Below the pieces are notes generated by a model. That model was not told where the DNA came from. It did not search any database and saw nothing but the letters and a program-made list of their open reading frames with translations. The translations under genes were made by a program, and so were the position numbers. This document shows, piece by piece, positions 9 to 57,618 of a stretch of 64,000 bases of DNA (within the stretch, counting starts at the first letter, position 1; each line of letters starts with the position of its first letter). The DNA is from an uncultured Gammaproteobacteria bacterium (GTDB lineage: Bacteria; Patescibacteriota; Patescibacteriia; SG8-24): contig CAZAOV010000001.1 of assembly GCA_964486995.1 (NCBI GenBank), positions 95,168 to 159,167 of the forward strand, in the 5' to 3' direction.

Positions 9-1256
9 ATGGGCAAAGGAGATAGTCAGCCTGGTTTCAATCCGGAAAGCTGGTTCGAGAATATTGAGGATGAAAAAGGCAAACCAATTAACCTCGAAGA
101 GTTTAAAGACAGGGGCAGTAAGCCGATCGAAGAGGGAGAAATTAAAGACGAGCGAACCCTGAAGGAGAGAGCCGAAATGCTTAAGCGCGCCGCCGAAGAG
201 CCGAAAATCACGATAATCGATGCGGTTGACGGGGAAGACAGTGAAACCATCATCGACCTCGACTTGAGTGACCGGAAAACCAGCCAAAAAAATATTGAAG
301 CGTTTGACGCGGCGAAAAAACTTGCGGAAAAAGAAGATCGCGAAAAACTTTCGGCTGAAGATGGCGTGATGCTCGATGCTGAACAGGAGGTACTGCTCCA
401 AGGAATTGTGGGCGAGCTGGCGGAAAAGGATAGCGTAAAAGAAATATTGATGCGCGAGGGAATTGCGGCGGGCGAAGATGAGCAAGCGCTGGAGAGCGGA
501 GTGGTAACCATGGTCGATAAGCTGATGACTCAGCCACAGATCCGGGAGCATCTGAAAAACCAGCTCAAGAATCAGCCAGACCAGATTTCTGCGATTGCCA
601 GTCTGAAACGCATTATCGAATCCACGATTTGGAATGCGGACCGCGAGACCAGAAAACAGCATGGAGAGATGCCGGTCACGAGCAATGAATCGACCCGGAA
701 AGAAATCGACCCGGCAATCAAGCAAGAGACCGAGAAAAGCTGGTCTCAATTGTCGAAAAAATTTTCCGCTGACAGCGAGTCCGTAACCATGCGGGAGAAA
801 AAGGCAGTAGTTCAGAAAATGATTCGCGGGTTAACCAGCGACCACCGGATTTCTGCGCTGGTGTTGACCGAGGGTCAGAACAACCAGTCGGAGGGACGAA
901 AACCCATTGTCGAACGGGGCATCGATGCGCTGGCTGAACGGATGACCACCGACCTGTCGGCGCAGATAAATTTTGAATTACAGTCGGCGCGCAAGCCGGA
1001 GGAATCGCTAAAGATTATCGAACGGCGTATTCTAAAAGAAGTCGAAAAAATTAAAGATTCAGCTAAGCAGAAAGAGCTCTATAAGGCCAAGTCCATCGAT
1101 TCGGGTGTGCCAACTTGGGAGAGCAGGCCGAGATTTGGCGAGGCACGAAAGGCGGCGAAAGCCAAACGGACGGCCGAGGAAAAACGTCAGGCCGAATCTA
1201 AGTTGGGTCCGCTAAAAAAGTTTGGTAAGTGGTTTGGTGGTCTGTTTGATAGATAA
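9..1256 (+). CDS. Hypothetical highly charged (E/K/D-rich) protein. The ORF is open to the window edge, so the true start may lie upstream. C-terminus is an amphipathic 'KKFGKWFGGLFDR' tail.
   Basis: Long ORF with compositional bias and no recognisable catalytic motif. A terminator hairpin follows at 1351-1386. Confidence 0.45.
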   Translation: MGKGDSQPGFNPESWFENIEDEKGKPINLEEFKDRGSKPIEEGEIKDERTLKERAEMLKRAAEEPKITIIDAVDGEDSETIIDLDLSDRKTSQKNIEAFDAAKKLAEKEDREKLSAEDGVMLDAEQEVLLQGIVGELAEKDSVKEILMREGIAAGEDEQALESGVVTMVDKLMTQPQIREHLKNQLKNQPDQISAIASLKRIIESTIWNADRETRKQHGEMPVTSNESTRKEIDPAIKQETEKSWSQLSKKFSADSESVTMREKKAVVQKMIRGLTSDHRISALVLTEGQNNQSEGRKPIVERGIDALAERMTTDLSAQINFELQSARKPEESLKIIERRILKEVEKIKDSAKQKELYKAKSIDSGVPTWESRPRFGEARKAAKAKRTAEEKRQAESKLGPLKKFGKWFGGLFDR

Positions 1257-2302: not shown

Positions 2303-2686
2303 CTACGGAGCGCACTTCTCGTACAAACAAGCCAGTACAGCAATCAACTCCACCGACTCCATCCGAACCACGTCACCATCCCAGAAACAGGATCCGATCC
2401 GCATCCACGAATCAAACACATCAGCATGCCGAGCAGAAAACACTTCGATAATCTGCACGCATGCTTTCTCATTCGATGTCGCCGCCATCACCGCACCAAC
2501 CCCTGTCTGGTCCAGGTCCATGTTGAACCGGAACGTCATAGATATGATTTCCGACAGACATCTAGTCCGTTCCATCACTCCGACTCCCTGCTTGGACACG
2601 AGCGACGACAGAAACTTCCGCACCGGTTCTGACACGATTTTTTCCCCGCTTCCGAACGGAACCCTGTTCACAAAATCCAAAATCAT
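2303..2686 (-). CDS. Hypothetical 127-aa protein, co-directional and just downstream of the tandem GGDEF-like gene.
   Basis: ORF only. No recognisable motifs. Confidence 0.4.
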   Translation of the reverse strand: MILDFVNRVPFGSGEKIVSEPVRKFLSSLVSKQGVGVMERTRCLSEIISMTFRFNMDLDQTGVGAVMAATSNEKACVQIIEVFSARHADVFDSWMRIGSCFWDGDVVRMESVELIAVLACLYEKCAP

Positions 2687-2878: not shown

Positions 2879-5800
2879 TTATTCCGAACCTTCCTCAATT
2901 AAATTGCTCACTAGGCGTTTCAAGGAATCTAATGCCAGTACCGACATGTCTGTCTCCTGATCCGCATGCTTGGCATCCACCCCAATTCCGCCCACTCCGA
3001 CCGCTAAATCACGAAGCAGTCGGTCCTGACGACCTAATTTTTCATTTAACTCATTGATGGAGCGCTCTAAATTTCTGGCTTCCTCGGTACGCTTGAGCAC
3101 CTTGGAGTAGACCGAATCTTCGGATTTTGCAGATGACGCTAACTGGCGTTTGAACTCTTTCTTGTCGTCGTCCGCCCGCTTGTCTGATATGTCCCACAAA
3201 CCGCCCACGATCTTGGCGTACATTTGTTCCGCGTAGTTTTCATTGCCGGTGAGACGCTTCCTTTCACGACGATCAATAATAGCCTGTCGCATACCCTCGC
3301 CGAGTGTCGCCACAGCTGCAGATGCCGAAGCGCGCATCTTGAAATCGTCCGAAACATCATCTAAGCCAGCTCGTTTTGCTACTTCTGGGTCAGAAAAATC
3401 CACCAAATCCGACACGTCCAGTTTAGCTATTTCATTTCGATAGGCGTTCAAAACGTTCTCAAGCGACTCCGCTTCAAGTGGCCGGTCGGATTTGACCATT
3501 ATGCTGTATTCGTCTCCCCCGCCAAGCAGCGGCAACACTTCTGTCGCGCCCATTTCACGCAACAGCGTAGCTGCTTCTGTATTTGGGTCACGAAACACCT
3601 CGGCCAATCGCTTAAGATATTCATCACCCTTGGCGTGCGAGCCGGATAAATCATTGACCGCCTTCAGCCCGTTGGCGTCAAACGAAAACCGTGCGACCTT
3701 ATCCATTTCTTCAGGCGATACCTGACCCTGCTCGTACATCTCCTTAACCCAGTCGATAGTCTTTAGCTTGCCGTATGCGTCCTTCATCATGAGCTCCTCC
3801 TGTCCGTCCTCAGCTTCAAAAGTGAATCGACTGTCCGCATACGCCAGGTCAAATATCTGCAGTTCTCGCTCGATGAAACTGTCGCGCTTAGTGAACAAGT
3901 CATCCAATTCCGCTTCAAGCTGCATAATCTTCTGCACCTGCTCTTGGTTCGGCTCACCCTCAATGCTGTCCATCAGTTCAACAAACTCTAGCTGACGGCC
4001 GTTTATTAGCGCATCGACATGCTCAACCACATTTCCGAGCCGTTTGACCGCCTCTTGCCGATGCTTCTCCGGTAGGCGCGCCAATCTTTCCTCAAGTTCG
4101 GAATTTGTGTCGGCACGCGACAAGTCCAACCCCGTTTTCTCCGCCCTGTCGCTTACCTTACTAATTACCTCTTTCATCTGGACGGTGCTGAAATCGGCTC
4201 TCTCTTTCCGCAAAGTCTGCTCGGTCAACGAACCTGTTTCGTCGGATTCCCCCTGCCCCTCTTCACTAGCAGTCATCCGTTCCTGAAGCATACTCTTTCG
4301 CTCCATACCCAACGCCTCCAGTCGGGCATATATCTGCTGAATCAACAGTTGAGGGGTCAAATCATCTCGGTTTAGCAGTTCATCACGAATGTTTCTTTTG
4401 ACTTCCTCGATTTTAGCCAATTCATCCGCTAGCATTTTTTCGTGCTTCTCCAGTTGCCGTGCTTCCTCGGTACGTTTCATTACCTTGGAATAAAATTGCT
4501 CCAATTCGGTGCCGTTCTTCAGGTCTTCCTTGTAGCGTCCTTTATTGAACTCGGCCCACTCGTCGGATGCGTCCCACAAGCCACCCATTATCTTTGCCAG
4601 CATGGAATTTTCTTCTGACTCGTCGCCGGTTAGTCTTTTTTCCGAACGGCTATCGTTTAAGGCCGTGGCCATACCTTCTTCCAGCGTGGCCACACCACCA
4701 GCTGCGGATGCCCACATCTTAAAATCCTCGGGAATAGTTTCGTCGGCCTGTTTCAGCACCTCTGCTCGCTGACTCTCGTCCATGGCGTCAAACTCACTCC
4801 TAGTGAGACCCATGAAACGCAACCGCACCTCGAAATCATTTTGCAGATCAATTAGGTTTTCTATGCCCTCAATGGCTTCGATTTCTTTTTCGAACTTCTC
4901 GACAACTTCGTTAAGCTCTCGCTGATCCAGTTCTTTGTCCGAACGCACCAGCACGCTGTACTCATCACCACCGCCCAACAGCGGCAGGTAGTTTTCTTCG
5001 GCCACGCCCATCTCTTCTAGCATCTGACGTGCTCGACTGTCTTTATTGCGAAAAACAGCGGCCACTTTTTTCAGATACTCATCACCCTTGTCGTGCGAAC
5101 CAGACAAGTCGTTGACCGCCTTCAAACCATTGGCGTCAAACGAAAGCCGGGCCACTTTCCGTAAATCCGACGCATCCATCTGCCCGTCCTGAAAAAATTC
5201 CTTGAGCCATTCCATGGTGCGCAGCTTGCCGAACACGTCTTTCATCATGTGCTCACTGCGACCGTCCGCCGTTTCGAACATGAATCGCTTATCTTCGAAC
5301 AGCTCCCGATGACGAGCGGCATATTCCTTGGTCAGCTCCTCCATCTGGTCGAACGCCCGAACATCTTTGATCATTTCTATGTAGTCCAAAACATCACGTA
5401 TCGATCGCTCCGACAAATCACTAAAAGGCTCGGCCAAATCGCCGACATACTGATCAAAAACTTTCTGTTTCTCTTCTTCGTCTAGGGCTTCGTACTCTTT
5501 CCTGAACTTCGCCTTGATTTCTTTGAGCGCATCGGACGATGCATACAGTTCCGAAGCGGTCATGGCCGTATCTTGAACCAGTTGTTCTAATATCATTTTC
5601 CTATCCTGGTCCGAAACGTCGGCTAACAACTCGCTGATTTCGGATTTGGCATCAATAATTCCGGTAGCCTTTGAGGCAACTGATGACTGTCCGGTTTCCG
5701 ACGGCATATCGACCGCACCGTCAAAATTCTCCCCCACCAACTGCTCAACCAACGCCTTTTTGTGAGCATCAACCCGACGATCGTTGATGTAATCTATTAT

Positions 5801-5914
5801 TTCCTCGACGGTTTTTGGCGCCTGTTCATGACCGAAATCGCTGGTCAGATTAGCTTCTTGCCTTTCTTTTGGCAGTTCAGCCATATATTTATCGTAGTGA
5901 GAAAATATTTCCAA
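2879..5914 (-). CDS. 1011-aa soluble protein with two tandem diverged GGDEF-like (class III nucleotidyl-cyclase palm) modules. Each module carries 'FDANGLKAVNDLSGSH(A/D)KGDEYL' and 'LPLLGGGDEYS', separated by coiled-coil-like charged segments. Putative (di)nucleotide cyclase.
   Basis: 'DANGLKAVND' aligns to GGDEF 'DxDxFKxxND', 'GSHxKGDEYL' to 'GHxxGDxxL', and 'GGGDEYS' to 'GGDEF'. The motif set occurs twice (around aa 255-330 and 740-815). No TM segment or signal peptide. Confidence 0.6.
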   Translation of the reverse strand: MEIFSHYDKYMAELPKERQEANLTSDFGHEQAPKTVEEIIDYINDRRVDAHKKALVEQLVGENFDGAVDMPSETGQSSVASKATGIIDAKSEISELLADVSDQDRKMILEQLVQDTAMTASELYASSDALKEIKAKFRKEYEALDEEEKQKVFDQYVGDLAEPFSDLSERSIRDVLDYIEMIKDVRAFDQMEELTKEYAARHRELFEDKRFMFETADGRSEHMMKDVFGKLRTMEWLKEFFQDGQMDASDLRKVARLSFDANGLKAVNDLSGSHDKGDEYLKKVAAVFRNKDSRARQMLEEMGVAEENYLPLLGGGDEYSVLVRSDKELDQRELNEVVEKFEKEIEAIEGIENLIDLQNDFEVRLRFMGLTRSEFDAMDESQRAEVLKQADETIPEDFKMWASAAGGVATLEEGMATALNDSRSEKRLTGDESEENSMLAKIMGGLWDASDEWAEFNKGRYKEDLKNGTELEQFYSKVMKRTEEARQLEKHEKMLADELAKIEEVKRNIRDELLNRDDLTPQLLIQQIYARLEALGMERKSMLQERMTASEEGQGESDETGSLTEQTLRKERADFSTVQMKEVISKVSDRAEKTGLDLSRADTNSELEERLARLPEKHRQEAVKRLGNVVEHVDALINGRQLEFVELMDSIEGEPNQEQVQKIMQLEAELDDLFTKRDSFIERELQIFDLAYADSRFTFEAEDGQEELMMKDAYGKLKTIDWVKEMYEQGQVSPEEMDKVARFSFDANGLKAVNDLSGSHAKGDEYLKRLAEVFRDPNTEAATLLREMGATEVLPLLGGGDEYSIMVKSDRPLEAESLENVLNAYRNEIAKLDVSDLVDFSDPEVAKRAGLDDVSDDFKMRASASAAVATLGEGMRQAIIDRRERKRLTGNENYAEQMYAKIVGGLWDISDKRADDDKKEFKRQLASSAKSEDSVYSKVLKRTEEARNLERSINELNEKLGRQDRLLRDLAVGVGGIGVDAKHADQETDMSVLALDSLKRLVSNLIEEGSE

Positions 5915-6074
5915 ATTTAGTGAAAAAATCGCTCTCGCGCTAATTGGGCTCGTTATAGTTAAATTTTAGCATATTTTAGCAAAAAAATCGAGAACGCATA
6001 GCACCCCCGTCCCGAATAGGGCCCGACGAAGTCTTGAAGCCCCACTAAAAAAGCTAAAATTAGCTCTTTTTATG

Positions 6075-7133
6075 TTACCCTGTATTTCCAACAATCAATT
6101 CATAAACCCTAAGCGCAGCATCCGAATCATTAATCCGGCTCATCGCAACGGACAACTGCCGTAACTCGTATGGATTTTGCAGTAAATAATTCACCCGCTC
6201 AGCCAACTTGTCCCCGCTACCGGACTCTTCAAACAGCACCGCGCCGCCGTGTTCAACATAGTATCGCGCATTTTCTTCCTGGTGCGAGTTCTGGATTGGC
6301 ACCACAACAGCTGGCAACCCCAGCGCCGCCAACTCGGTCAGAGTGCCCATCCCGGCCCGCGTCACCACCAATCGAGCCGCCGCATAAGCATCGGCAATCT
6401 CCTCGGACAAAAACTCAACCTGATGATAAGTATTGGGCGCGTTATGGGTCGGATAGCTTTTTCCGCGACCGACCACATGAATTATCTGCACACCGTCAAG
6501 CGCCGGCAATGCGGCCATCACCAGTCGATTCAAGTTCACCGCACCGGTCCCGCCGCCGATGACCAGCACAATCGGCAGTTCCTCACGAAGCCTAAAACGA
6601 CGCCGCGCCTTCTCGGCGGAACCGCTGAACAAAAATCGACGAATCGGATTTCCGGTAACCGTAATTTTTTTGCCGCCAAAATCTTCCCGTGACTTGGCAA
6701 AGGTCGCCGAAACGCTCTTGGCGAACGGCACCGACAGCCTGTTCGCCAGACCTGGCCGCCAATCCATCTGATGAATATGCGCCGGAATCCGCAGTAGCCA
6801 AGCCGCCCAAACAACCGGCACCGCCACGAACCCACCGGCGCTAACCACCGCATCTGGGCGGAAGAGCCTCAGCTGCGACCACGCATCATACAAACCCTTC
6901 AGAACCAAAAATGGCGTAGCCAAATTTCTCAGGGTCAAAAATCGCCGCAATCTGCCGGAAGTAATGCCGACATATTTAATATCCGCAGCTTCGACCATCT
7001 TTCGTTCCGGTCCGGTTTTAGTGCCAAGCCAAAGCAATTCGTGATTGGAATTTTTTTCTTGAGCCACTTCGGCCACGGCCAGCAGCGGTGTCACCGAACC
7101 CAGTGTGCCTCCGCCGGAAAATACTATCTTCAT
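6075..7133 (-). CDS. murG: MurG, UDP-GlcNAc:lipid I N-acetylglucosaminyltransferase.
   Basis: N-terminal 'KIVFSGGGTLGSVTP', GT28 architecture, and a 4-nt overlap with the upstream ftsW gene (dcw synteny). Confidence 0.9.
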   Translation of the reverse strand: MKIVFSGGGTLGSVTPLLAVAEVAQEKNSNHELLWLGTKTGPERKMVEAADIKYVGITSGRLRRFLTLRNLATPFLVLKGLYDAWSQLRLFRPDAVVSAGGFVAVPVVWAAWLLRIPAHIHQMDWRPGLANRLSVPFAKSVSATFAKSREDFGGKKITVTGNPIRRFLFSGSAEKARRRFRLREELPIVLVIGGGTGAVNLNRLVMAALPALDGVQIIHVVGRGKSYPTHNAPNTYHQVEFLSEEIADAYAAARLVVTRAGMGTLTELAALGLPAVVVPIQNSHQEENARYYVEHGGAVLFEESGSGDKLAERVNYLLQNPYELRQLSVAMSRINDSDAALRVYELIVGNTG

Positions 7134-8266
7134 ACTCGTCGTCTTAGCCGTTGCGGTTTATTGCTGGCTGCCTCGATGTGGCGGGTTATGTTTGCCACCA
7201 CTCCCATAGTGGCCAAAACCACCAGCAACGCCGTTCCGCCGTGGCTGATGAAAGGCAACGGCAACCCAGTCATCGGGAACAGTCCAATCATGGAACCAAC
7301 ATTCAGCAATATTTGCGACAAGAGCCAACCGGCCACACCAGCAACAAACAGCGCACTAAAGCCACAAGGAGCTTTTCTGGCCACAGTCAGTAACCGCAAA
7401 ATAAAAACGGCCATTAGCGCCAGCACCGCCATAGTCAGCACGAATCCCAACTCCTCGGCAATAATCGCGAATATCGAGTCGCCGACCACCTCGGGCAAAT
7501 ACATGTATTTCTGTCGCGAGTGTCCGAGCCCCAAACCAAACAATCCGCCCGAACCAATCGCCAAGAAGGACTGGTTGATATGATATCCAATCCCCTGCGG
7601 TTCCAACTCCGGATGAAGAAAGGTCATCAGTCTTGCCGCACGATATGGAGCGCTCTTAATCGACAGGTAAAGCGCCGCCGCACCGGCGGCTGACAGGCCG
7701 ACCAGATGCGCCCACGGTGCGCCGGCCAGAAAAAACACGATAACGGAAAGCGCAACAATCACCGACAGACTACCTAGGTCGGGCTGTAATATAACCAGCG
7801 ACGCGACCGAGCCCAGCGATAGAATAAATGGCCACAGCCCGAGTTTCGGATTCTGCAACTCATCACCGCTGAGGCGCGACAACCAATCGGCCAGAAACAC
7901 CAGCAGTGTGAACTTCACCACCTCGGCCGGCTGCAAAGAAAAACCACCGATGTTGATCCAGCTGCGTGATGTGCCCCATGTAGCACCCAAGCCCGGAACA
8001 AACACCAGAAGCAGCAAAACCAACGAGACAAAAAACATCGGTTTAGCCATCTTTCGCAAAAACCGATAGTCGATATGCGACAGCAGTAAAAACAGCACCA
8101 TGCCAGGCAACAAGCCGTAAAACAGCTGATGCTTGACGTACCAATACGAATCACCAAATTTTTCATACGCCACCGGTCCAGATGCGGAAGTGAGCATGAC
8201 TAAACCCAGCACCAGCAAAATGCCGAGCATCACAAGAAATCTCCTGTCTATCTGGGGCGTAATCAT
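7130..8266 (-). CDS. ftsW: FtsW/RodA (SEDS-family) lipid II polymerase/flippase.
   Basis: ~10-TM protein with SEDS-like motifs. Sits immediately upstream of murG. Confidence 0.85.
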   Translation of the reverse strand: MITPQIDRRFLVMLGILLVLGLVMLTSASGPVAYEKFGDSYWYVKHQLFYGLLPGMVLFLLLSHIDYRFLRKMAKPMFFVSLVLLLLVFVPGLGATWGTSRSWINIGGFSLQPAEVVKFTLLVFLADWLSRLSGDELQNPKLGLWPFILSLGSVASLVILQPDLGSLSVIVALSVIVFFLAGAPWAHLVGLSAAGAAALYLSIKSAPYRAARLMTFLHPELEPQGIGYHINQSFLAIGSGGLFGLGLGHSRQKYMYLPEVVGDSIFAIIAEELGFVLTMAVLALMAVFILRLLTVARKAPCGFSALFVAGVAGWLLSQILLNVGSMIGLFPMTGLPLPFISHGGTALLVVLATMGVVANITRHIEAASNKPQRLRRRV

Positions 8267-8318: not shown

Positions 8319-10682
8319 TTATTTTTTACCTTTCGTTAGCACTAAAGGGAGAACCTCATCCACGGTTTTCACAAAAACAAATTCCATGCTGTCCCGTACC
8401 TCCTGCGGCACGTCAGCCAAATCCCTGCGATTGTCGTGTGGCATTATTACTCGCTTGATGCCAGCGCGATGCGCGGCCAGACACTTCTCTTTGACGCCGC
8501 CGATTTCAAGCACTCGACCGCGCAACGTTATCTCCCCGGTCATGGCAACACTCCGGCTTAATTTGTTGCCGCCCAGTAACGACACCAGCGCCACGGCCAT
8601 AGCTACACCCGCGGACGGTCCGTCTTTAGGTATGGCTCCGGCCGGAACATGAATATGAAAATCAGTTTTCTGGTGAAAGTCCGCATTCACCCCCAGCTTG
8701 TCGGCCACCGACCGCACATAAGAAAATGCGGCTTGCGCGGATTCCTGCATAACCTCTCCAAGTTGCCCAGTCAAAATCAGTTTCCCCTTGCCCGGCATCT
8801 GGGTCGCTTCAATTTGCAGAATTTCACCGCCGGTCTGCGTCCACGCCAGGCCAGTCACCACACCGACCTCGTCGCGTGCACCGGCTTCCATGTGAGTAAA
8901 CTTGCGCGGACCCAAGAAATTCTCAACGTCTTTAGCACGAATATCTTTTCGCGGTTTAGTGCCCTCAACTACTTTCTTGGCGATCTTTCGGCATACCGAT
9001 GATATTTCTCGCTCCAGATTGCGCACGCCCGCCTCACGCGTATAATGACGAATCAACTCATGCAGTGCGGCTGGCTGGAACTTGCAGCCACGTCGCCCTA
9101 ACCCGTTGTTCCTAATCGCTTTCGGTATCAGATACCCCTTTGCAATCTCTGTCTTCTCACGCTCGGTGTAGCCGGGAAATTCAATCACCTCCATGCGATC
9201 CCGAAGGGCCGGCGGAATTGTGTCGAGCACGTTAGCCGTAGTAATGAACAGCACGTCAGACAAATCAAACGGCACTTCCAGATAATGATCAGAAAACTCA
9301 TGATTCTGTTCCGGATCAAGCGCCTCCAGTAACGCAGCTGACGGATCACCACGAAAATCAGAACCAATCTTATCGATTTCGTCCAGCATAAATACCGGAT
9401 TACAGGTACCGACATTAGCGATACCCTGGATAATTCGACCGGGCAACGCACCAACATATGTCCGCCGATGCCCGCGAATCTCAGCTTCGTCATGCACGCC
9501 ACCCAAGCTGACACGATGAAACTTCCGCCCGAGCGCCCGGGCGATAGACTTGCCGATAGAAGTCTTGCCGGTTCCGGGCGGCCCGGCAAAACACATTATC
9601 GACCCACGCATCTTGCCGACCAATTTTTGCACCGCCAAATACTCCAGCACGCGATCCTTGGGCTTATCCAAACCAAAATGATCCTCATCCAGAATTTTTT
9701 TGGCCTGCTTCACATCTATCTCGGATTCGTCTTTCTTGTCCCACGGCAAATCCGTCAGCCATTCAAGATATGTCCGAACGTACGACGCTTCCGGACTGAA
9801 CGACGGCATGGCTTTCAACCGATGATATTCTTTTATCGCCTTAGCCTTTGCGTCCTCCGGCATGTTGGCGGATTCAATACGTTCGCTCAAATCGTCATCG
9901 TCACTTTTGCCGTTGATGCCTTCCAGCTCTTTTTCAATCGATTTCAACTGCTCACGCAGAAACACTTCGCGCTGCATTTTGTCGAGCTCCTTACCGGTTT
10001 CGGCCTGAATCTGCGATGCCATCTGCAAAATTTTTACCTGTCGGCCTAAAGCCTGGCTGACGCGGTCCAATTTCTCTTCTGCGGTATTTGATTCGAGCAC
10101 GCCCTGTTTTTCCTTGACCGACATCTCCACGTTCGCGGCAATCATGTCGCCGAGCAGCCACGGCTCACTCATATTCAAAATCACCAACAGCACATCAAAC
10201 GACACGTTCGCCCCCATGTTCACCACTCGCCTAAACTGATTCAGCACGCTGTACATCAACGCTTCTATTCGTTCGGTCTTCTGATCGTTCGGCTCAAAAA
10301 ATGGCTTAACTACAGCCTTAATATATGGTTTCTCCACTGCGACTGACGCTATCCGAACCCGCGCTAACCCCTCTACCAAAACACGAATCGTTCCATCGTC
10401 CTGCTTCACCAACTCACGCACTCGAGCCAACGTACAAACTTCGTACAGCTGATCGACGGTGGGTTCACTGGCCTCCGGATTCTTTTGCGCTGAAAGCGCG
10501 ATTACCCGACCGTGCTTCATTGCGTCGTCCAGCGCCTGCGTGGACTTTTCTCGCCGAACCACAATCGGCATGGCCACGCGCGGAAAAGCCACGGTGTCCC
10601 GAAGCGGAATTAACGGCACCTCTCGAGACTTGCGGTCCGAGAAATATTGTTCGGCAAATTCTTGGTTGTCTTTTTGAGCCAT
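8319..10682 (-). CDS. lon: ATP-dependent Lon protease (LonA).
   Basis: Lon N-domain, Walker A 'GPPGTGKTS', 'DEIDK', and the catalytic Ser region 'PKDGPSAGVAMAVALVS'. Confidence 0.95.
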   Translation of the reverse strand: MAQKDNQEFAEQYFSDRKSREVPLIPLRDTVAFPRVAMPIVVRREKSTQALDDAMKHGRVIALSAQKNPEASEPTVDQLYEVCTLARVRELVKQDDGTIRVLVEGLARVRIASVAVEKPYIKAVVKPFFEPNDQKTERIEALMYSVLNQFRRVVNMGANVSFDVLLVILNMSEPWLLGDMIAANVEMSVKEKQGVLESNTAEEKLDRVSQALGRQVKILQMASQIQAETGKELDKMQREVFLREQLKSIEKELEGINGKSDDDDLSERIESANMPEDAKAKAIKEYHRLKAMPSFSPEASYVRTYLEWLTDLPWDKKDESEIDVKQAKKILDEDHFGLDKPKDRVLEYLAVQKLVGKMRGSIMCFAGPPGTGKTSIGKSIARALGRKFHRVSLGGVHDEAEIRGHRRTYVGALPGRIIQGIANVGTCNPVFMLDEIDKIGSDFRGDPSAALLEALDPEQNHEFSDHYLEVPFDLSDVLFITTANVLDTIPPALRDRMEVIEFPGYTEREKTEIAKGYLIPKAIRNNGLGRRGCKFQPAALHELIRHYTREAGVRNLEREISSVCRKIAKKVVEGTKPRKDIRAKDVENFLGPRKFTHMEAGARDEVGVVTGLAWTQTGGEILQIEATQMPGKGKLILTGQLGEVMQESAQAAFSYVRSVADKLGVNADFHQKTDFHIHVPAGAIPKDGPSAGVAMAVALVSLLGGNKLSRSVAMTGEITLRGRVLEIGGVKEKCLAAHRAGIKRVIMPHDNRRDLADVPQEVRDSMEFVFVKTVDEVLPLVLTKGKK

Positions 10683-10819: not shown

Positions 10820-11875
10820 CTAGGAGAAGAATCCGATATCGATGAGCGCCATCACGAAGCCCATCACCGAAGTCACGCCAGCGATAATCCAAAACCGCAT
10901 CACAATTTTTGGTTCGGACCAGCCGATCGCTTCAAAATGATGATGAATCGGCGCGGAGCGAAACACTTTCTTGCCGCCACGCAACTTCTTAGATGAAACC
11001 TGAATAATGACCGATGCTGATTCGAGCACAAAAATAAACCCGATTATCGGCAACAATAACGCGGTGTTTGTGAGCATGGCCACGATTCCGAGCGTAACAC
11101 CTAACGACATCGCGCCCGTATCACCCATGAAGAACCGCGCCGGATTGATGTTGAACCACAAGAACGCCAATAGCGCGCCGACGATTACCCCGCAAAACGC
11201 CGCCAAGTCTGTGCGGCCCTGCATGAACGCAATCGCTCCGTATGCGCCAAAGCTTGAAAGCAGAACGCCACCGGCCAACCCGTCCAGACCATCGGTCTCG
11301 TTAACCGAAAAGGACGTTGCCACAATCACGACAATGAACGCCATGATATACCACCAGCCGATATTGAAATTACCCAAAAACGGCACGCGCAGTAAATCCC
11401 AATCAAGCTTAAAATAAAACCACAAAGCCCCAACCAGCGCTATTACTGTGTAAACCACCAAACGATGTGCCATTGTAAGGCCGCCGCCATGCGGACCAAT
11501 CTTGCGAACATTAAAATAGTCATCCACCACACCAATCAACGCCGCAGCCACCAAAGCGCCGAGCGGCAACAGGGTCTGTGACCGAGACAAAAAATTGAAC
11601 CAAGAGAAGAACGGTCCACCGAACCACTGATTGCCAAAGTAAAAAAATAACGCCAACGCCAATACCGTCACCCAAATCAGAATTCCACCCATGGTCGGAG
11701 TGCCGGACTTGCCCTGATGCAGCTTCGAAAAAATCGGTGCAGACTTGGCATCACGTATCTGTTTACCCAACTTAAATTTATACAAAAAGTTCGTCAAAAG
11801 CGGCGTCCAACAAATGGCCACTAAAAACGATACTGTGGTCAGAAAAAAAATTTTGATTACACCGTAGATTTCCAT
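10820..11875 (-). CDS. mraY: MraY, phospho-N-acetylmuramoyl-pentapeptide transferase.
   Basis: Polytopic membrane protein with MraY-type loops, located upstream of the dcw genes. Confidence 0.9.
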   Translation of the reverse strand: MEIYGVIKIFFLTTVSFLVAICWTPLLTNFLYKFKLGKQIRDAKSAPIFSKLHQGKSGTPTMGGILIWVTVLALALFFYFGNQWFGGPFFSWFNFLSRSQTLLPLGALVAAALIGVVDDYFNVRKIGPHGGGLTMAHRLVVYTVIALVGALWFYFKLDWDLLRVPFLGNFNIGWWYIMAFIVVIVATSFSVNETDGLDGLAGGVLLSSFGAYGAIAFMQGRTDLAAFCGVIVGALLAFLWFNINPARFFMGDTGAMSLGVTLGIVAMLTNTALLLPIIGFIFVLESASVIIQVSSKKLRGGKKVFRSAPIHHHFEAIGWSEPKIVMRFWIIAGVTSVMGFVMALIDIGFFS

Positions 11876-12018: not shown

Positions 12019-12441
12019 CTAACCGTTCAACAGTGCCGCCATCACGCCACCAATCAGGAACAGGAGCTGAAGAAAGATTGTAATTCCGTACAACACCGAA
12101 CCAAACATCCTATGGCTCTTGGACAATGCGCCAGCAATCAAACCGTTGACGAAAAAGACCACCAAACCAAAACCAGGAAATATGAATATCTTCCACCAAA
12201 CATCAATCCAATCAACGCCGAGCGCAGCCGTATAATGCAGTCGCAAAAAATTCAACTGACCAATCCGCGACAATACAAACCACAGTAAAAGAAGCCAATG
12301 AACCAACAGCACGGCCATAGCCAATACGGCCATAACTTCTATCGTGCGATTATATATACCGAACAGCTTCTCAAGCGTTCCGTTTCCGTATTTACGTACA
12401 GGCATAAAATAGGGCGGATGATGAGCCGACTTACGCGGCAT
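12019..12441 (-). CDS. Hypothetical small integral membrane protein (3-4 TM). Start uncertain.
   Basis: Hydrophobic ORF only. Confidence 0.4.
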   Translation of the reverse strand: MPRKSAHHPPYFMPVRKYGNGTLEKLFGIYNRTIEVMAVLAMAVLLVHWLLLLWFVLSRIGQLNFLRLHYTAALGVDWIDVWWKIFIFPGFGLVVFFVNGLIAGALSKSHRMFGSVLYGITIFLQLLFLIGGVMAALLNG

Positions 12442-12742: not shown

Positions 12743-14488
12743 ATGCTACAAGACGACCTGCTTAAAAAAATCCTTCGAGAAACTAAAACACTGGATGCCA
12801 AAGGAATAAAGGATCTCATAAAAGAGGCTGGAGAAAAAGACCCGAAAATGCCTCTTGAGACTTTTCTGATAAAGGAGAAAAAGATGCCAGAAGAGATGCT
12901 TTACCGCATCGCCGCTCAATTTTATAGGTTGCCGTTCATCAATCTGCGAGAAAAACCGATTCGTCGGGATATTCTGTTCATGATTCCGGAACCTATCGCC
13001 AATTCGCACAAGCTCGTGGCCTTTGATCAAATAGGTGACGAGCTTTTTGTTGCCACGATGGAGCCAACGGACTTACAGACGTTCGAGTTCATAAAACGAA
13101 AGACCAACCTTAATTTAAAAGTGCACTATACCAATCCGGAATCTTTTGAAACCGCGGTCAAACAATATAAGCAAAGCCTGTCTGCCGAACTGGGTGCGCT
13201 CACTGCCATACCGACCAAGGACGGCGAAGCTTCATCGCCAGAGGAAGAGGCCAAGCTGTCTAAGCTGGCAGAAGATATCCCGATTATCCGTGTGGTGGAT
13301 TCAATCTTGGAGCATGCCGTACTGGAAGGCGCTTCAGATATTCATGTTGAACCCACCGAACATGAGATACAAATTAGGTTCCGCGTGGACGGGGTGTTGC
13401 GTCCGGTAATGACCTTTCCGAAGGTGGTCGCGCCAGGAATCGTCGCTCGCATCAAGATTTTATCTAATCTAAAACTAGACGAACACCGTCTACCACAAGA
13501 CGGTCGTTTCAAAATTGAAAACAATAACTATAAGTTTTCATTACGTGTTTCTATCCTGCCGGTACAAGACGGCGAAAAAATCGTCATGCGCCTACTTTCC
13601 GAAACAGCGGCCGCTCTCTCGCTTGACCAGCTCGGCTTCCGGCCAAAAATACAAGAACAGGTGATGCGCAACGTCAACAAACCTCACGGTATTATCCTGG
13701 TAACCGGACCAACGGGTTCGGGAAAATCGACCACTTTATATTCAATTATCAATATTTTGAACACTCCTCAGGTGAATATCTCTACCGTCGAAGATCCGGT
13801 TGAGTATCGCATGCCCGGCATCAATCAAAGCCAGGTCAATCCAAAAATCGGTTTCACGTTTGCAGGTGGTCTGCGCGCGCTTCTGCGTCAGGATCCGAAT
13901 ATAATTATGGTCGGTGAGATTCGCGATGAAGAAACCGCCGGCATTGCGGTACAAGCCGCTATGACAGGCCACTTGGTACTCGGAACCTTGCACACCAACG
14001 ATGCAGCCACTTCACTCCCGCGCCTAGTCGACATGAACGTGCCGCGATTCCTGATCGCTTATACCGCAAACATGATTATCGGTCAGCGATTGGTGCGTAA
14101 AATATGCCAGAACTGCCTTCGGTCATATCGTCTGCCTAAACACGCCGTCGATGAGCTCAAAAAGGAGGTTGACTTGGATTCCATATGGAAAACGCTAAGA
14201 AGAGAGGGGTTTGTCGAGAAAGACCAAAAAATTGAAGACACTACATTCTGGCGCGGCTCTGGCTGCTCGCAATGCGGCGAAGAAGGCTATAAAGGGCGGA
14301 TGGGAATTTACGAACTGCTAGAAACGTCACCTGATATCGCTGATATGATTAACGAAAACGCCTCATCGGAAGAAATTAAAAAAGCGGCCATAGGAGAGGG
14401 TATGGTGACTATGATCGAAGAGGGATTCATGAAAGCGATCAAGGGCTCAACAACGGTCGAAGAGGTGTTACGCGTAACTAAAGACTAG
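12743..14488 (+). CDS. pilB: Type IV pilus / type II secretion assembly ATPase (PilB/GspE family).
   Basis: GspE_N-like N-domain, Walker A 'VTGPTGSGKST', Asp/His boxes, and a C-terminal tetra-Cys cluster 'CQNC...CSQC'. Confidence 0.9.
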   Translation: MLQDDLLKKILRETKTLDAKGIKDLIKEAGEKDPKMPLETFLIKEKKMPEEMLYRIAAQFYRLPFINLREKPIRRDILFMIPEPIANSHKLVAFDQIGDELFVATMEPTDLQTFEFIKRKTNLNLKVHYTNPESFETAVKQYKQSLSAELGALTAIPTKDGEASSPEEEAKLSKLAEDIPIIRVVDSILEHAVLEGASDIHVEPTEHEIQIRFRVDGVLRPVMTFPKVVAPGIVARIKILSNLKLDEHRLPQDGRFKIENNNYKFSLRVSILPVQDGEKIVMRLLSETAAALSLDQLGFRPKIQEQVMRNVNKPHGIILVTGPTGSGKSTTLYSIINILNTPQVNISTVEDPVEYRMPGINQSQVNPKIGFTFAGGLRALLRQDPNIIMVGEIRDEETAGIAVQAAMTGHLVLGTLHTNDAATSLPRLVDMNVPRFLIAYTANMIIGQRLVRKICQNCLRSYRLPKHAVDELKKEVDLDSIWKTLRREGFVEKDQKIEDTTFWRGSGCSQCGEEGYKGRMGIYELLETSPDIADMINENASSEEIKKAAIGEGMVTMIEEGFMKAIKGSTTVEEVLRVTKD

Positions 14489-14493
14489 TCAAA

Positions 14494-15591
14494 ATGAACG
14501 CAATTCAACGTTTAGACTATTGGCTGATGCATCACACCGGGGTGCCGCTGACGCAAAAGGTGTTTTTTACGGAAAATCTTCGCGTGATGGTGAAGGCTGG
14601 GTTATCAATGACGGAGGCCTTGGGGACGTTATCACTGCAATCAGAATCAAAGACGTTCAAAAGAATCATCAACGAGCTTCGTCAGGATATAGAGACCGGA
14701 AAATCGCTATCGGTTAGCATGGCACGCTTTCCGAAAACCTTCACGGACATATATCGAAGCATGATTGAAGTCGGTGAAGTTTCCGGCACGTTAGAAAAAA
14801 CTTTGGACGAGCTGGCGATACAGATGAAAAAGGACCACAAGTTGCGATCCAAGGTTAAGGGTGCCATGACCTATCCGATTGTCATCTTGATTGCAATGCT
14901 TGGTATTACCGCCCTGCTGATGGTGTTTGTGTTGCCCAAACTGCTCGGCGTGTTTAAGGAATTCGGTGACTCCGTTCAGCTGCCGCTGGCCACTCGCATG
15001 CTCATGTCAATCAGTGACTTCGTACAGAACAATGGAATTCTGACCGGACTGTTAATCGTGTTCATCATAGTTGGAACCGGCGCTTTTTCTCAGATTCAAT
15101 TCGGACGAAGAGTATTTCACTATTGTTTTCTGCACGGACCGATTCTCGGCCCAATAACCAAAAAAATAAACTTGGCTCGTTTCTCGCGCACAATTTCTGG
15201 ACTGTTGCGTACGGATATTCCTGTTGTGCAATCATTCGAAATCACTTCGCAGGTGGTTGGCAACGTTTATTACAAAGAAGCGATAATGAAAGCGAGCGAG
15301 CTAATCAGAAAAGGCGCCACTGTCGCCGAGAGCATCACCAGGGAGGATAAAATATTTCCGCCGCTCGTCGTGCAGATGGTTCATGTTGGTGAGCGGTCCG
15401 GTAGCGTGGATGAAATGCTGGAAGAGATAGCGGAGTTCTACGAACAGGAAGTTGATAATGTGCTGGACAGTCTTTCTTCAATTATCGAACCGGTATTAAT
15501 ACTGGTACTGGCGCTTATGGTCGGCGGAATCGCCTTGGCAGTTATCACCCCGATGTATTCGCTGACCCAAGCCATGGCTGAAGGTGGTTAA
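14494..15591 (+). CDS. pilC: Type IV pilus platform protein (PilC/GspF family).
   Basis: Duplicated GspF domains with 3 TM, immediately after pilB. Confidence 0.85.
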   Translation: MNAIQRLDYWLMHHTGVPLTQKVFFTENLRVMVKAGLSMTEALGTLSLQSESKTFKRIINELRQDIETGKSLSVSMARFPKTFTDIYRSMIEVGEVSGTLEKTLDELAIQMKKDHKLRSKVKGAMTYPIVILIAMLGITALLMVFVLPKLLGVFKEFGDSVQLPLATRMLMSISDFVQNNGILTGLLIVFIIVGTGAFSQIQFGRRVFHYCFLHGPILGPITKKINLARFSRTISGLLRTDIPVVQSFEITSQVVGNVYYKEAIMKASELIRKGATVAESITREDKIFPPLVVQMVHVGERSGSVDEMLEEIAEFYEQEVDNVLDSLSSIIEPVLILVLALMVGGIALAVITPMYSLTQAMAEGG

Positions 15592-27090: not shown

Positions 27091-27537
27091 TTATTTTTCC
27101 TTGGGAATGATTGATATTTTAACTTCGGCCACTCGTTCTTTGGTGACGTAAATTTTGATGTGGCAGTCACCGGGTTCTTTGACGGGCTGTTCCATTTCGG
27201 CTCGCTCGATTTCTATGCCGGTCTCATTTTGAATGAATTCCGCCACTCGCTCCGGCGTGACCGCTTGATATAACTTTCCGGACGGTGCCACCAGCTCCTC
27301 GAAAACGATATCCAGCTCGCCAATCGCTTTGGCGTTCCTCTTGGCGCGCATTTTCATTCGTTGTTCTTTCTTGGCCGCGTCTTTACTGGCTTGCGCGACC
27401 GACTTGGCGGCCCTGGCGCTCTCCGGCACCGCTAGACCTTGTGGAATCAGAAAGTTCCGCGCATGTCCATCGGAAACCTCTTTGACCTCGCCTTTCTGGC
27501 CGGTTCCCTTAACCTCTTTAAGTAAGATGACTTTCAT
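27091..27537 (-). CDS. rplI: 50S ribosomal protein L9. Start taken at the internal '[11 protein letters not shown]' rather than the longer ORF.
   Basis: '[37 protein letters not shown]' matches the L9 N-domain. Confidence 0.85.
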
Positions 27538-27550
27538 ACGCTCAGACAAA

Positions 27551-28102
27551 TTACTTCTTGTTGTTATTCTTAATCTTCTTGAGAACCTCCACAGCCTTAT
27601 CAATTACATCGTTGACATCCTTATAGGTAGATTTTTTCTTCAGCTGGCTAACCGGTACCCAGACAATCTTACGAATCCTCTCTTTCTTCTGTGGTTTGCC
27701 CCATGCCTTAGATGCCGCTTCCATCAGAAAAAAATGAACGAACTTATGCACCAGCATACCGCGCGTGGCCGGTCGATACTGATCGCGAAAATAAAAATCT
27801 ATCTTACCGAGCGGCGCCTTCACCCGCAGGCTGCGCAAGCCCATTTCTTCTTTGGCCTCACGAACCGCGGCCTGCCGAATGGTCTCGCCCTTCTCCACGT
27901 GCCCCTTGGCGAACGCCCATTTACCGAAAGGATCCAACAACAAAGCGACACGCACCCCTTTCGGGGTGCGCCTGAACACTATGCCACCAGCGGAGATTTC
28001 AACTCTGGACTTCTCGCCCTTGTTTGCTGGCTGGTGCGCTCGGACCGGTTTCTTTTTGGGCGCTCGAGCGCTAACTCGTTTTTTGCCTGCCTTGGCCGGC
28101 AT
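27551..28102 (-). CDS. NUDIX hydrolase with a basic N-terminal extension.
   Basis: Nudix box '[23 protein letters not shown]'. Confidence 0.8.
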
Positions 28103-28103
28103 A

Positions 28104-29402
28104 TTACCTAGTGTCAGTAAGTTCCCTTAGCTCTTCTATCGCTCGATCCATTTGCGGATCAAGATTATTATTAAAGTCCTCAACCGTCATCTCCACAATC
28201 TCATCTGGCGTAATGCCCTCCTTTTCTATTGACTGTCCACCCGGAGTCAACCACAGAGCGATAGTGATTTTGAGCGCCGATCCATCATCAAATTCAACGT
28301 AGTCCTGTACCGATCCCTTGCCAAAAGTCTGCTCGCCAACCAGTATCGCCCTATCATAATGTTGTAATGCTCCAGACACAATCTCCGACGCCGAAGCTGA
28401 GCCACCGTTAACCAGCACAACGGTCGGCATTTCAGTGAAGCGTGAGTTACCGTTGGAGGTGTAATTTCGCAACGAACCGTCGCTGAACTTCTCCTGCACC
28501 ACCACATCGCGCTGAATCCATTCACCGGCTACATCCACAGCGGTATCCAAGAATCCGCCCGGGTTGTTGCGCAAATCCAATATCACACCGTCCGGATTCT
28601 CCAGTAAAATCGACTGCACCGCCTCTTCAAATGCCGGCATGGTGGATTCGTTAAAGTGGAATATTTCGATCAGCCCATAGCGCAAACCGTCCTGCTCCTC
28701 GATTCGCCAACGTGTCGAAATAACATAAATGGTATCGCGTATAATGGAGACTTCGGACGGCTCCTCGCCTTCACGACCAATCGTCAGTATAACTTCCTCT
28801 CCCTTGGGACCGCGGATGCGTCGCACCGCCTCATCAGTTGACATACCATAGGTTTCCACATCGTCAATCGCTAAAATTATGTCTCCCGCCATCAGCCCAG
28901 CACGTTCCGCTGGAGTATCGGGCAACGGAGCAATTATTTTCAACAAATCTTGTTTGATGCCTATTTCCGCACCAATCCCCTCAAAAGTACCGGACAGCTC
29001 AGACTCGAACATCTCGGCAAAATGCGGATCCAGGAAAACAGAATACGGGTCTTGCAACGCACCTACCATGCCGGAAATAGCGCCGTAAAATAGGTCAGTC
29101 TCATCAACCGGCTGTTCGACGTGCCGACTGCGGACAATCTCCCAAACATCCCAAAACCTTTCAAATTCAATTTTATTATCGACACTGGCCGGAACTTCGG
29201 TCTGACCGGATATGGTTTTGCGAATTATCTCAGCGACCTTGGTTTCGTCATGATTAGACTCGCCTATCGCAACCCCAAAAACGAAGGCGATAACAACTAG
29301 CGCAGCCACCGCTGCGCCGGTCGCATAACGTTTTAAGACGTCTGATTTCTTTTCTGATTTTTGTCGTAAATATTTCTCCATAATTCGCGGTAAGGATACC
29401 AA
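28104..29402 (-). CDS. C-terminal processing (tail-specific, S41) peptidase with a PDZ domain and an N-terminal TM anchor.
   Basis: PDZ 'GDIILAIDDV' and the S41 core 'VVLVNGGSASASEIVSGALQ'. Confidence 0.85.
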   Translation of the reverse strand: MVSLPRIMEKYLRQKSEKKSDVLKRYATGAAVAALVVIAFVFGVAIGESNHDETKVAEIIRKTISGQTEVPASVDNKIEFERFWDVWEIVRSRHVEQPVDETDLFYGAISGMVGALQDPYSVFLDPHFAEMFESELSGTFEGIGAEIGIKQDLLKIIAPLPDTPAERAGLMAGDIILAIDDVETYGMSTDEAVRRIRGPKGEEVILTIGREGEEPSEVSIIRDTIYVISTRWRIEEQDGLRYGLIEIFHFNESTMPAFEEAVQSILLENPDGVILDLRNNPGGFLDTAVDVAGEWIQRDVVVQEKFSDGSLRNYTSNGNSRFTEMPTVVLVNGGSASASEIVSGALQHYDRAILVGEQTFGKGSVQDYVEFDDGSALKITIALWLTPGGQSIEKEGITPDEIVEMTVEDFNNNLDPQMDRAIEELRELTDTR

Positions 29403-42833: not shown

Positions 42834-43424
42834 TCACGTATGCAACCGCGACAGCACACTTACAATAGCCACCGCCAATGCAAGTGCTAGAGTACCCGCC
42901 GAAATCTCAACCAGCAAACTCACGTCCAGCCACAAGGCAAACAACAGCAGTGAGATTCCGCATACCTCAGTCACCATTTTGAGTTTACCCCAAAAATTGG
43001 CCGGCTCAATAATGCCCTTTCGCTGGCGCACCCAAGCGCCGATGATCATAACCGATTCGACTGCGAGTAAAGCCATACCAAGCGCATAGTTGATGTGCTG
43101 CAGAACCACCAAAAACAATACTGCGCCAATCAGCATCTTATCGGCCAAGGGGTCGTATTTAATGCCCCATTCGGTAACCTGTCTGCGCACTCGCGCCATT
43201 GACCCGTCCAGAGCATCGGTCAACGCCGCAAAAATAAATAGTGGCACACCGATGTGATATGCCTGCACATGCAAAAAATACAAGACCACCGGTATCATCA
43301 GCATGCGGAACACAGTAACGTGATTCGGATGAACCGCTTGTGGCATAAACGGATCAATCGCACGCCTATAGACCTTGTCGTGCGGCAGCAGTCGGATATT
43401 TTTGTTCCACTTATCGCCAAACAT
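42834..43424 (-). CDS. CDP-alcohol phosphatidyltransferase.
   Basis: 'DALDGSMARVRRQVTEWGIKYDPLADK' matches D-G-x2-A-R-x8-G-x3-D-x3-D. Confidence 0.8.
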   Translation of the reverse strand: MFGDKWNKNIRLLPHDKVYRRAIDPFMPQAVHPNHVTVFRMLMIPVVLYFLHVQAYHIGVPLFIFAALTDALDGSMARVRRQVTEWGIKYDPLADKMLIGAVLFLVVLQHINYALGMALLAVESVMIIGAWVRQRKGIIEPANFWGKLKMVTEVCGISLLLFALWLDVSLLVEISAGTLALALAVAIVSVLSRLHT

Positions 43425-43449
43425 GGAGATTATTTGCTATCCTATCCTC

Positions 43450-57531: not shown

Positions 57532-57618
57532 ACAGCTGGTTTTTAATTGCCAAAGACAACGGGAGCGTCTGCCTGCCGGCATATCTGTCTTTACAAAATA
57601 TTAGAGGAATGCTCTGAC

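Follow-up and report, generated by a model that had tools for sequence, protein, structure and literature searches.

In the 64,000-nucleotide stretch of contig CAZAOV010000001.1 analysed here (hereafter the window), which derives from a bacterium of the candidate phyla radiation, a minus-strand gene encodes a soluble protein that carries two GGDEF-type modules in one polypeptide chain. Judged on its sequence and on a structural model, this tandem protein is a GGDEF cyclase by fold and by active-site residues, while it fails the curated sequence thresholds for such enzymes. It represents a rare fusion within a GGDEF subfamily that is divergent and uncharacterised, and belongs to a known enzyme type rather than to a new category of system. 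We give slightly better than even chances to the view that it acts as a cytoplasmic, sensor-less and feedback-insensitive diguanylate cyclase whose two modules pair within the chain; the catalytic activity, the product cyclic di-GMP (c-di-GMP) and the intramolecular pairing are what we infer here from the evidence laid out below.

An earlier, sequence-only reading of the window had delimited an open reading frame (ORF) at 2879–5914. The frame is indeed unbroken, but it lies on the minus strand, and its 1011 amino acids (aa) had been counted from a TTG codon at 5914, which is kept here as an alternative start; a plus-strand reading of the interval was rejected, as that frame is full of stops. 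An ATG at 5884 is the probable start. The product of 1001 aa is identical to the database protein P0001, both P0001 and its ortholog P0002 begin at the ATG equivalent to 5884, and the orthologs of 998, 987 and 1002 aa begin at the equivalent Met. Residue numbers follow this 1001-aa version (positions in the TTG version minus 10). The tandem architecture and its synteny are shared by four independent assemblies (the window and loci L001, L002 and L009/L021), and since the same two-module gene occupies the same place in all of them, the tandem gene is real and not an assembly artefact.

We compared the two halves of the protein with each other using BLASTP. Residues ~206–509 matched residues ~692–970 (here in the 1011-aa TTG numbering) with 45% identity and E = 7e-81, which places the duplication far beyond chance. 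The duplicated unit of ~270–295 aa per module exceeds the length of a canonical GGDEF domain. The motif set quoted in the sequence-only reading does occur twice in the chain: FDANGLKAVND (aa 249–259 and 735–745), GSH(D/A)KGDEYL and LLGGGDEYS, with GGDEY at aa 305–309 and 789–793, were each seen in both modules. Each module opens with a beta-hairpin, which is followed by the GGDEF core; between alpha-3 and the strand after it lies a helical insert, and then come an invariant KRLTGxE loop and long C-terminal helices that end in KRTEEAR. GGDEY and FKM were 80–82 aa apart in module 1, as they were in at least 24 single-module relatives, whereas module 2 had a spacing of 58 aa in every tandem protein, so that a 22-aa deletion constitutes a conserved asymmetry between the modules.

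The AlphaFold2 model of the full chain had a mean predicted local distance difference test (pLDDT) score of 83.2, and both modules were mostly above 90 (~88–98 in module 1; block means of at least 84 throughout, and mostly above 90, in module 2). In the N-terminal region the block means ranged from 28 to 82, with disordered stretches at aa 1–19, 54–76 and 169–181. The long charged helical segments that had been proposed are seen in this model, where the last helix of the linker (aa 647–682) continues straight into module 2 like the 'stalk' of a cyclase. The maximum 19-residue mean hydropathy on the Kyte–Doolittle scale was 0.79, in keeping with a soluble protein that has no membrane domain. 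A Pfam scan and the composition (0 Cys, 22% Asp + Glu, 14% Lys + Arg) agree with the earlier statement that sensor, membrane, HD and zinc-finger domains are absent from the chain.

Profile and fold comparisons bore out the proposal that both modules are GGDEF-type palm cyclase domains. The NCBIfam model TIGR00254 matched the chain twice, below its cutoff, and PF00990 was the sole recurrent Pfam family among 66 relatives (23/66 at E <= 0.01, best E 2e-11). It scored 26.0 bits in the ortholog P0003 and 29.9, 24.4 and 25.9 bits in the relatives P0053, P0077 and P0135, respectively, against a Pfam cutoff of 23.8. When a profile of six modules (alignment A1) was compared with the sequences of the PDB, the top matches were all diguanylate cyclases, the best being tDGC of Thermotoga maritima. 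The alignment paired FDANGLKAVNDLSGSHxKGDEYL...GGDEY with VDLAGFKAINDTYG-HLSGDEVL...GGDEF of tDGC, placing FDANGLKAVND opposite VDLAGFKAIND. The best 50 matches of the structural model in a Foldseek search of the PDB likewise consisted entirely of GGDEF cyclases, their target TM-scores reaching 0.70; they included the stalk-plus-GGDEF cyclases SiaD, DgcB, DgcR and PadC, and also GacA (6d9m). The modules show the palm-like beta-alpha-alpha-beta-beta-alpha-beta core of the GGDEF fold, and both kinds of match were to GGDEF cyclases instead of to a non-cyclase palm family such as a polymerase or a primase.

Conservation of the active site was counted in an alignment of 66 family members (A2), using the numbering of module 2 of the window protein. 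D736, K741, N744, D745, G790-D791-E792 and K908 were invariant (66/66), and K912 was kept in 64/66. D250/D736 is equivalent to D327 of PleD, N258/N744 to N335, and D268/D754 to D344; K908 and K912 lie in the motif SDxxAxxxKxxxK, which resembles the canonical ADxAxYxAKxxGR, and are equated with the phosphate-binding K442/R446 of PleD by this likeness; a corresponding Lys pair is seen in both modules. The sequence-only reading had taken the second metal-binding Asp to be replaced by Asn, which proved mistaken: the Asn of DANG is not at a metal-ligand position. Ala stands there in tDGC, a robustly active enzyme reported to match PleD strictly in its metal and base residues (PMC4215984), so that Asn at this position is irrelevant to catalysis. 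The Tyr that replaces Phe in the GGDEF loop is a natural variant (PMC6456294).

We also looked for the allosteric RxxD inhibitory site (I-site) five residues before GGDEF, a frequent but non-defining feature of GGDEF domains. It was found in neither module, where the positions read EENY (module 1) and ATEV (module 2), and R..D was conserved nowhere at these positions among the 66 family members; feedback through an I-site and a role as an I-site receptor are thereby excluded. Loss of the I-site removes product inhibition, and tDGC, a sensor-less stand-alone protein, is a robust enzyme (PMC4215984).

To determine the size of the family, a profile was searched exhaustively against 1.84 billion cluster representatives, which yielded 292 proteins at E <= 0.001. 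Since GGDEF domains as a whole are very abundant, so small a yield points to a tight, divergent subfamily. Nearly all members have a single module and 300–500 aa (typically ~415 aa). Matches in two stretches occurred only in two clusters, P0003 and P0002, the latter including the window protein, and only four distinct complete tandem genes were found, at five loci. The named members belong to the Patescibacteria group, Candidatus Uhrbacteria, Falkowbacteria and Peregrinibacteria; the labels 'Gammaproteobacteria' and 'Planctomycetota' on a few members from metagenome-assembled genomes (MAGs) are probably binning errors. The earlier statement that nothing similar had been described as a family stands in that no curated model covers these proteins, and falls in that a recognisable GGDEF subfamily of ~290 clusters exists, some members of which are already annotated automatically as 'GGDEF domain-containing protein'. 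In the literature we found nothing on the subfamily and no tandem GGDEF–GGDEF enzyme, but GGDEF–EAL tandems or two-chain dimers instead.

In a neighbour-joining tree, all copies of module 1 formed one clade and all copies of module 2 its sister clade. This topology indicates one ancient internal duplication, in which the common ancestor of the tandem genes acquired a second copy of the whole unit. P0004 and P0005 were considered as the closest single-module relatives and rejected; both group with the module 2 clade and are likely to be fragments of tandem genes, P0004 lying at a contig start and being nearly identical to module 2 of L009, and P0005 being labelled partial. Identity to P0002 was 73% in module 1 and 66% in module 2, with 37% in the N-terminal region and 40% in the linker; the corresponding values for P0003 were 52%, 51%, 25% and 27%. 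The comparable identity of the two modules implies comparable constraint, with neither copy decaying.

Canonical diguanylate cyclases are dimers of GGDEF half-sites. We propose that an ancient internal duplication of a unit made of a helical N-terminus, an extended GGDEF domain and a helical C-terminus gave rise to the tandem chain. Each module carries a complete half active site and, as is expected from the specificity Asp of both modules, should bind one GTP with Mg2+. Modules 1 and 2 would swing together about the flexible helical linker until their GGDEY loops stand face to face as an asymmetric pseudo-heterodimer, in which two GTP would be converted to c-di-GMP. The helix before each module would play the part of the coiled-coil stalk in homodimeric cyclases. 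In a protein that lacks both an RxxD I-site and a sensor domain, control would be exerted via expression or via partners that bind the helical regions. We favour pairing within the chain because both copies are equally constrained and their divergence is fixed and asymmetric; the sister clades and the 22-aa deletion of module 2 alone fit two specialised, non-interchangeable partners.

Several observations weigh against this proposal. The tandem protein had no PF00990 match even at E <= 10, and TIGR00254 reached 27 bits, in two stretches that cover both modules, against its cutoff of 37.4. K908/K912 are equated with K442/R446 of PleD through motif similarity rather than through a structural alignment residue by residue. 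Each module has a helical insert foreign to the canonical domain, further helices come after the last one that matches the canonical consensus, and the canonical C-terminal strands appear to be absent. The predicted template modelling score (pTM) was 0.57 for the whole chain and 0.60 for a second model of aa 176–970 (mean pLDDT 88.5), with hinges in the linker (Table 1), and the model thus indicates two well-folded halves whose mutual orientation is unfixed, with no confident interface between the modules. No EAL, HD-GYP or PilZ domain was matched by Pfam in the 51 window ORFs scanned, a set that leaves aside a few ORFs of 65–90 aa and a 260-aa ORF at 27329–28111, and no c-di-GMP or cGAMP riboswitch, or any other Rfam family, was found in the 64-kb window; two regular-expression matches resembling PilZ look like chance.

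The pattern of pTM and pLDDT is compatible with a chain that swings between open and closed states and, equally, with pairing between chains. An active cyclase of the latter kind is the most serious alternative, though one that we consider clearly the less probable. The chains would dimerise or oligomerise via their long helices and pair as 1-1' and 2-2' (or head-to-tail as 1-2'), giving two active sites per dimer as against one per monomer. The single-module relatives, which must pair between chains, carry the same helical N- and C-terminal regions, the structural neighbours DgcB, SiaD and PadC are homodimers with coiled-coil stalks, and the low-confidence hinges between the modelled halves leave them without a confident mutual orientation. 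A deletion that affects module 2 alone, together with equal constraint on both copies, is however explained more simply by a partnership of module 1 with module 2.

We further analyzed the position that governs substrate choice (aa 754 of the window protein, equivalent to D344 of PleD and S348 of GacA). Among the 66 relatives, this position was Thr in 34, Asp in 30 and Asn in 2. All four tandem proteins have Asp there in module 1 and module 2 alike, and GTP as the substrate and c-di-GMP as the product are predicted for them on this ground. GGDE[F/Y] was invariant across the 66 relatives, including those of the Thr type. Since natural enzymes of the cGAMP-producing Hypr type, with Ser or Thr at position 348, carry exclusively GGDE[F/Y] (PMC6456294), the combination in 34/66 members is the reported Hypr signature, and many of the relatives in Patescibacteria may be promiscuous rather than c-di-GMP-specific. 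An active GGDEF-type cyclase with another product, such as 3',3'-cGAMP, c-di-AMP or a linear dinucleotide, has to be weighed for the tandem protein as well, and the distance of the family from canonical GGDEF sequences also speaks for it. We hold it to be improbable. In the window protein, as in all tandem orthologs, each of the two modules has Asp in place of the Ser/Thr of Hypr enzymes, the change S348D turns GacA into a strict diguanylate cyclase (PMC6456294), and the guanine-binding Asn is invariant.

A still less likely reading, to which we give little credence, is that of a non-catalytic coiled-coil scaffold of the envelope or division machinery, in which the GGDEF-like domains would serve solely for the binding of GTP or a dinucleotide, in a sensory or receptor role. 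In known GGDEF receptors, binding takes place at the RxxD I-site and the active site (A-site) is degenerate. In the present family this pattern is reversed, with an A-site that is invariant in 66/66 and no I-site, and the tandem protein has no output domain. Three observations would suit a scaffold: nine distinct loci keep the gene directly after mraY-(lon)-ftsW-murG, the protein is very rich in helices and charged residues, and no turnover or receptor genes were seen nearby. The murG linkage is, however, lineage-specific, being missing in the dnaE–thrS lineage and others, and a terminator-like hairpin separates the gene from murG.

The Cas10 analogy of the sequence-only reading found no support, and a Cas10-like or other defence oligonucleotide cyclase making cyclic oligoadenylates or another immune signal is effectively refuted: the likeness to Cas10 of type III CRISPR systems is superficial, consisting of two palm-type domains in one polypeptide, whereas the top 50 fold matches are all GGDEF cyclases, there is no Cys, zinc-finger residue, HD domain, PADLOC model match or CRISPR–Cas neighbour, the neighbours are housekeeping cell-wall, Lon and pilus genes in a stable chromosomal synteny across genomes, and both modules keep the full catalytic set, unlike Cas10, in which one palm is catalytic.

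Compared with the canonical stalk cyclases PleD, WspR, DgcB (Caulobacter), SiaD, DgcR and PadC, the tandem protein shares the metal Asp, the guanine Asn/Asp, GG(D/E)E(F/Y) and, by motif likeness, the Lys pair, as well as a long helix that runs directly into the catalytic domain. It differs from them in having two catalytic domains per chain, no sensor or receiver domain, no RxxD, and a helical insert of ~30–55 aa after alpha-3. The enzyme tDGC (TM1788; PDB 4URG/4URS/4URQ; Foldseek target TM-score 0.70) has the same form of the first motif, D-x-x-G-(F/L)-K-A-(I/V)-N-D, and is likewise active without a sensor domain (PMC4215984), but it is a single domain of 167–188 aa that dimerises between chains and has a functional RxxD I-site (R158). 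The Hypr enzymes GacA (Geobacter) and Bd0367 (Bdellovibrio) follow the rule of Ser/Thr with GGDE[F/Y] that is also seen in the family (PMC6456294); they have Rec or GAF sensor domains and an I-site, whereas the tandem protein has Asp in both modules. The single-module relatives, for example P0012 from a Candidatus Uhrbacteria MAG, WKZ28999.1 (P0047) and TSC58445.1 (P0077) from Peregrinibacteria, possess the same extended module with the invariant motifs FDANGLKAVND, GGDE[YF], FKMxAS, GGLWDxSD and KRTxEAR, and many of them lie after murG. They differ in having one module and ~400–440 aa, mostly with Thr at the specificity position, and many are preceded by an ORF of 53–63 aa that is absent from the tandem loci.

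To our knowledge, cyclic-dinucleotide signalling in Patescibacteria is essentially unstudied. One paper counts 'diguanylate cyclases' in passing in ultra-small groundwater MAGs (PMC9938205). Two intact GGDEF domains joined by nature in one chain provide a test of the rule that diguanylate cyclases work only as half-site dimers, and if the modules do pair within the chain, such a constitutive, feedback-free cyclase would be a simple tool for making c-di-GMP. The split between Asp and Thr within an otherwise invariant family could be used to study substrate choice in GGDEF enzymes. None of these points changes the category of the protein, which stays that of a GGDEF cyclase. As no recognisable receptor or phosphodiesterase lies nearby, novel effectors may exist in these minimal genomes.

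A broader conjecture, which we regard as unlikely and put forward tentatively, is that these proteins form an undescribed minimal family of cyclic-dinucleotide synthases, perhaps specific to the candidate phyla radiation, with the window protein as its fused and obligately asymmetric version. In reduced genomes the family would be the main or sole source of dinucleotide messengers, with receptors of a novel type, and could couple envelope growth or division, or pilus-mediated attachment, to nucleotide signalling. In this picture the family, which has neither a sensor nor an I-site, would alternate at the specificity position between Asp, for c-di-GMP, and the Hypr-like Thr, for cGAMP or c-di-AMP; it would be tied by position to the mraY-ftsW-murG operon, and its Thr type to the small upstream ORF.

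The features of the tandem gene and its neighbours are summarized in Table 1.

Table 1. Coordinates in the window of the tandem GGDEF gene, its parts and neighbouring features (residues in the 1001-aa numbering)
Feature	Position	Strand	Remarks
Tandem GGDEF protein gene	2879–5884	minus	probable ATG start at 5884, 1001 aa; stop codon 2879–2881
N-terminal acidic helical region, aa 1–189	5318–5884	minus	weakly conserved, partly low-confidence; no Pfam domain
Module 1, aa 190–484	4433–5317	minus	beta-hairpin, GGDEF fold with ~55-aa helical insert, long C-terminal helices
Module 1 motif DANGLKAVND, aa 250–259	5108–5137	minus	metal Asp D250, guanine-binding Asn N258
Module 1 A-site GGDEY, aa 305–309	4958–4972	minus	specificity Asp D268 upstream, in GSHDKGD
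Inter-module helical linker, aa 485–675	3860–4432	minus	low-confidence hinges at aa 544–557 and 589–594
Module 2, aa 676–945	3050–3859	minus	fold of module 1; insert shortened by a 22-aa deletion
Module 2 motif DANGLKAVND, aa 736–745	3650–3679	minus	metal Asp D736, guanine Asn N744
Module 2 A-site GGDEY, aa 789–793	3506–3520	minus	specificity Asp D754; K908/K912 putative phosphate-binding pair
C-terminal helical tail, aa 946–1001	2882–3049	minus	from the structure model
Terminator-like hairpin with T-run	5989–6009	minus	between murG stop and tandem gene start; from a consensus scan only
murG	6075–7133	minus	Pfam; upstream of and co-oriented with the tandem gene
ftsW	7130–8266	minus	Pfam
lon	8319–10682	minus	Pfam; Lon protease, between mraY and ftsW
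mraY	10820–11875	minus	Pfam
pilB	12743–14488	plus	Pfam; divergent from the tandem gene
pilC	14494–15591	plus	Pfam; pilB-pilC start a type IV pilus cluster that extends to ~22.3 kb

In its gene content the window resembles an ordinary chromosomal segment of Patescibacteria. We examined the genes around the family members in the available loci. The order mraY-(lon)-ftsW-murG upstream of the family gene is kept in L001, L002, L005, L007, L009 and L021. A family gene stands directly after murG in nine distinct loci (the window, L001, L002, L005, L007, L009, L011, L024 and L026), including that of a member only ~32% identical to the window modules. In another lineage the family gene lies between dnaE and thrS, and further members sit elsewhere. 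Given this lineage-specific linkage and the hairpin after murG, the gene is often, though not necessarily, associated with the cell-wall operon, and it is doubtful that the two are transcribed together; the hairpin suggests that the tandem gene is a transcription unit of its own.

In the window, L001, L002, L007 and L009 the lon gene sits as an insertion between mraY and ftsW; in L005 it is absent from that position. A multi-pass membrane protein of 140 aa without a Pfam match (12019–12441, minus strand) heads the mraY-lon-ftsW-murG string, and it is kept at the same position, with 48–69% identity, in L001, L002, L005, L007, L009 and L021. Just downstream of the tandem gene, an ORF of 127 aa (2303–2686, minus strand) has a counterpart in the same place in L001 (32% identity) but is not kept in other loci; it has a strong promoter-like site at 2782–2754 (11/12 matches) and a terminator-like hairpin at 2289–2261.

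The sequence-only reading had also drawn attention to the neighbouring type IV pilus locus, whose cluster further holds pseudopilins and pilMNO. This link is weak: pilB is 6.8 kb away and divergent, five genes lie between, and elsewhere the family gene is found near dnaE and thrS. The c-di-GMP-binding MshEN domain is recognised by a motif of 24 residues that occurs in tandem, RLGxx(L/V/I)(L/V/I)xxG(L/V/I)(L/V/I)xxxxLxxxLxxQ, for which strict and relaxed patterns have been given by its authors (PMC5013675). Both patterns were absent from PilB and from the six-frame translation of the window, and the PF05157 match of PilB spans aa 61–145 only. PilB was accordingly rejected as a local c-di-GMP receptor.

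Directly upstream of single-module genes of the Thr type, we observed a micro-ORF of 53–63 aa with the motif [KR]P.YRP....[PS][ED][EQ]E..[IL]AS.L.RLG. It was located at 7774–7935 in L003, 5738–5929 in L020 and 7764–7937 in L005, and at approximate positions ~7548 in L013, ~4033 in L014, ~1440 in L015, ~759 in L011 and ~2423 in L026. The micro-ORF occurs in two unrelated contexts (after murG, and in the dnaE–thrS lineage), which suggests that it travels with the cyclase gene, and it is absent from all loci of the Asp type and all tandem loci. A MAFFT alignment suggested that it might have become fused to the N-terminus of the tandem protein, but a hidden Markov model of the micro-ORF matched nothing in the tandem proteins or the window (E <= 10), and this possibility is not supported. 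In the dnaE–thrS context, a single-pass membrane protein of ~510–526 aa without a Pfam match follows ~20 nucleotides after the family gene (L003, 9263–10786; L013, 9008–10570; L014, 5522–7072; L015, 2933–4450; L020, 7281–8861); it has no homolog in the window.

Farther from the tandem gene, the window contains two proteins of 974 and 1174 aa (54658–57582 and 59996–63520, both on the minus strand) that have signal peptides and no Pfam match. They share an N-terminal domain of ~130 aa (D(D/G)KRYVFP...TWY.DFS.V...) and look like surface or cell-wall proteins. The GC content is raised to 0.58 at 60–62 kb, compared with ~0.50 elsewhere in the window. Five long ORFs of 403–759 aa without a Pfam match (E <= 0.001), at 39480–41081 (minus), 41020–42675 (minus), 43375–45654 (plus), 9–1256 (plus) and 57619–58830 (minus), lie among glycosyltransferase and dTDP-rhamnose (rmlABCD-type) genes.

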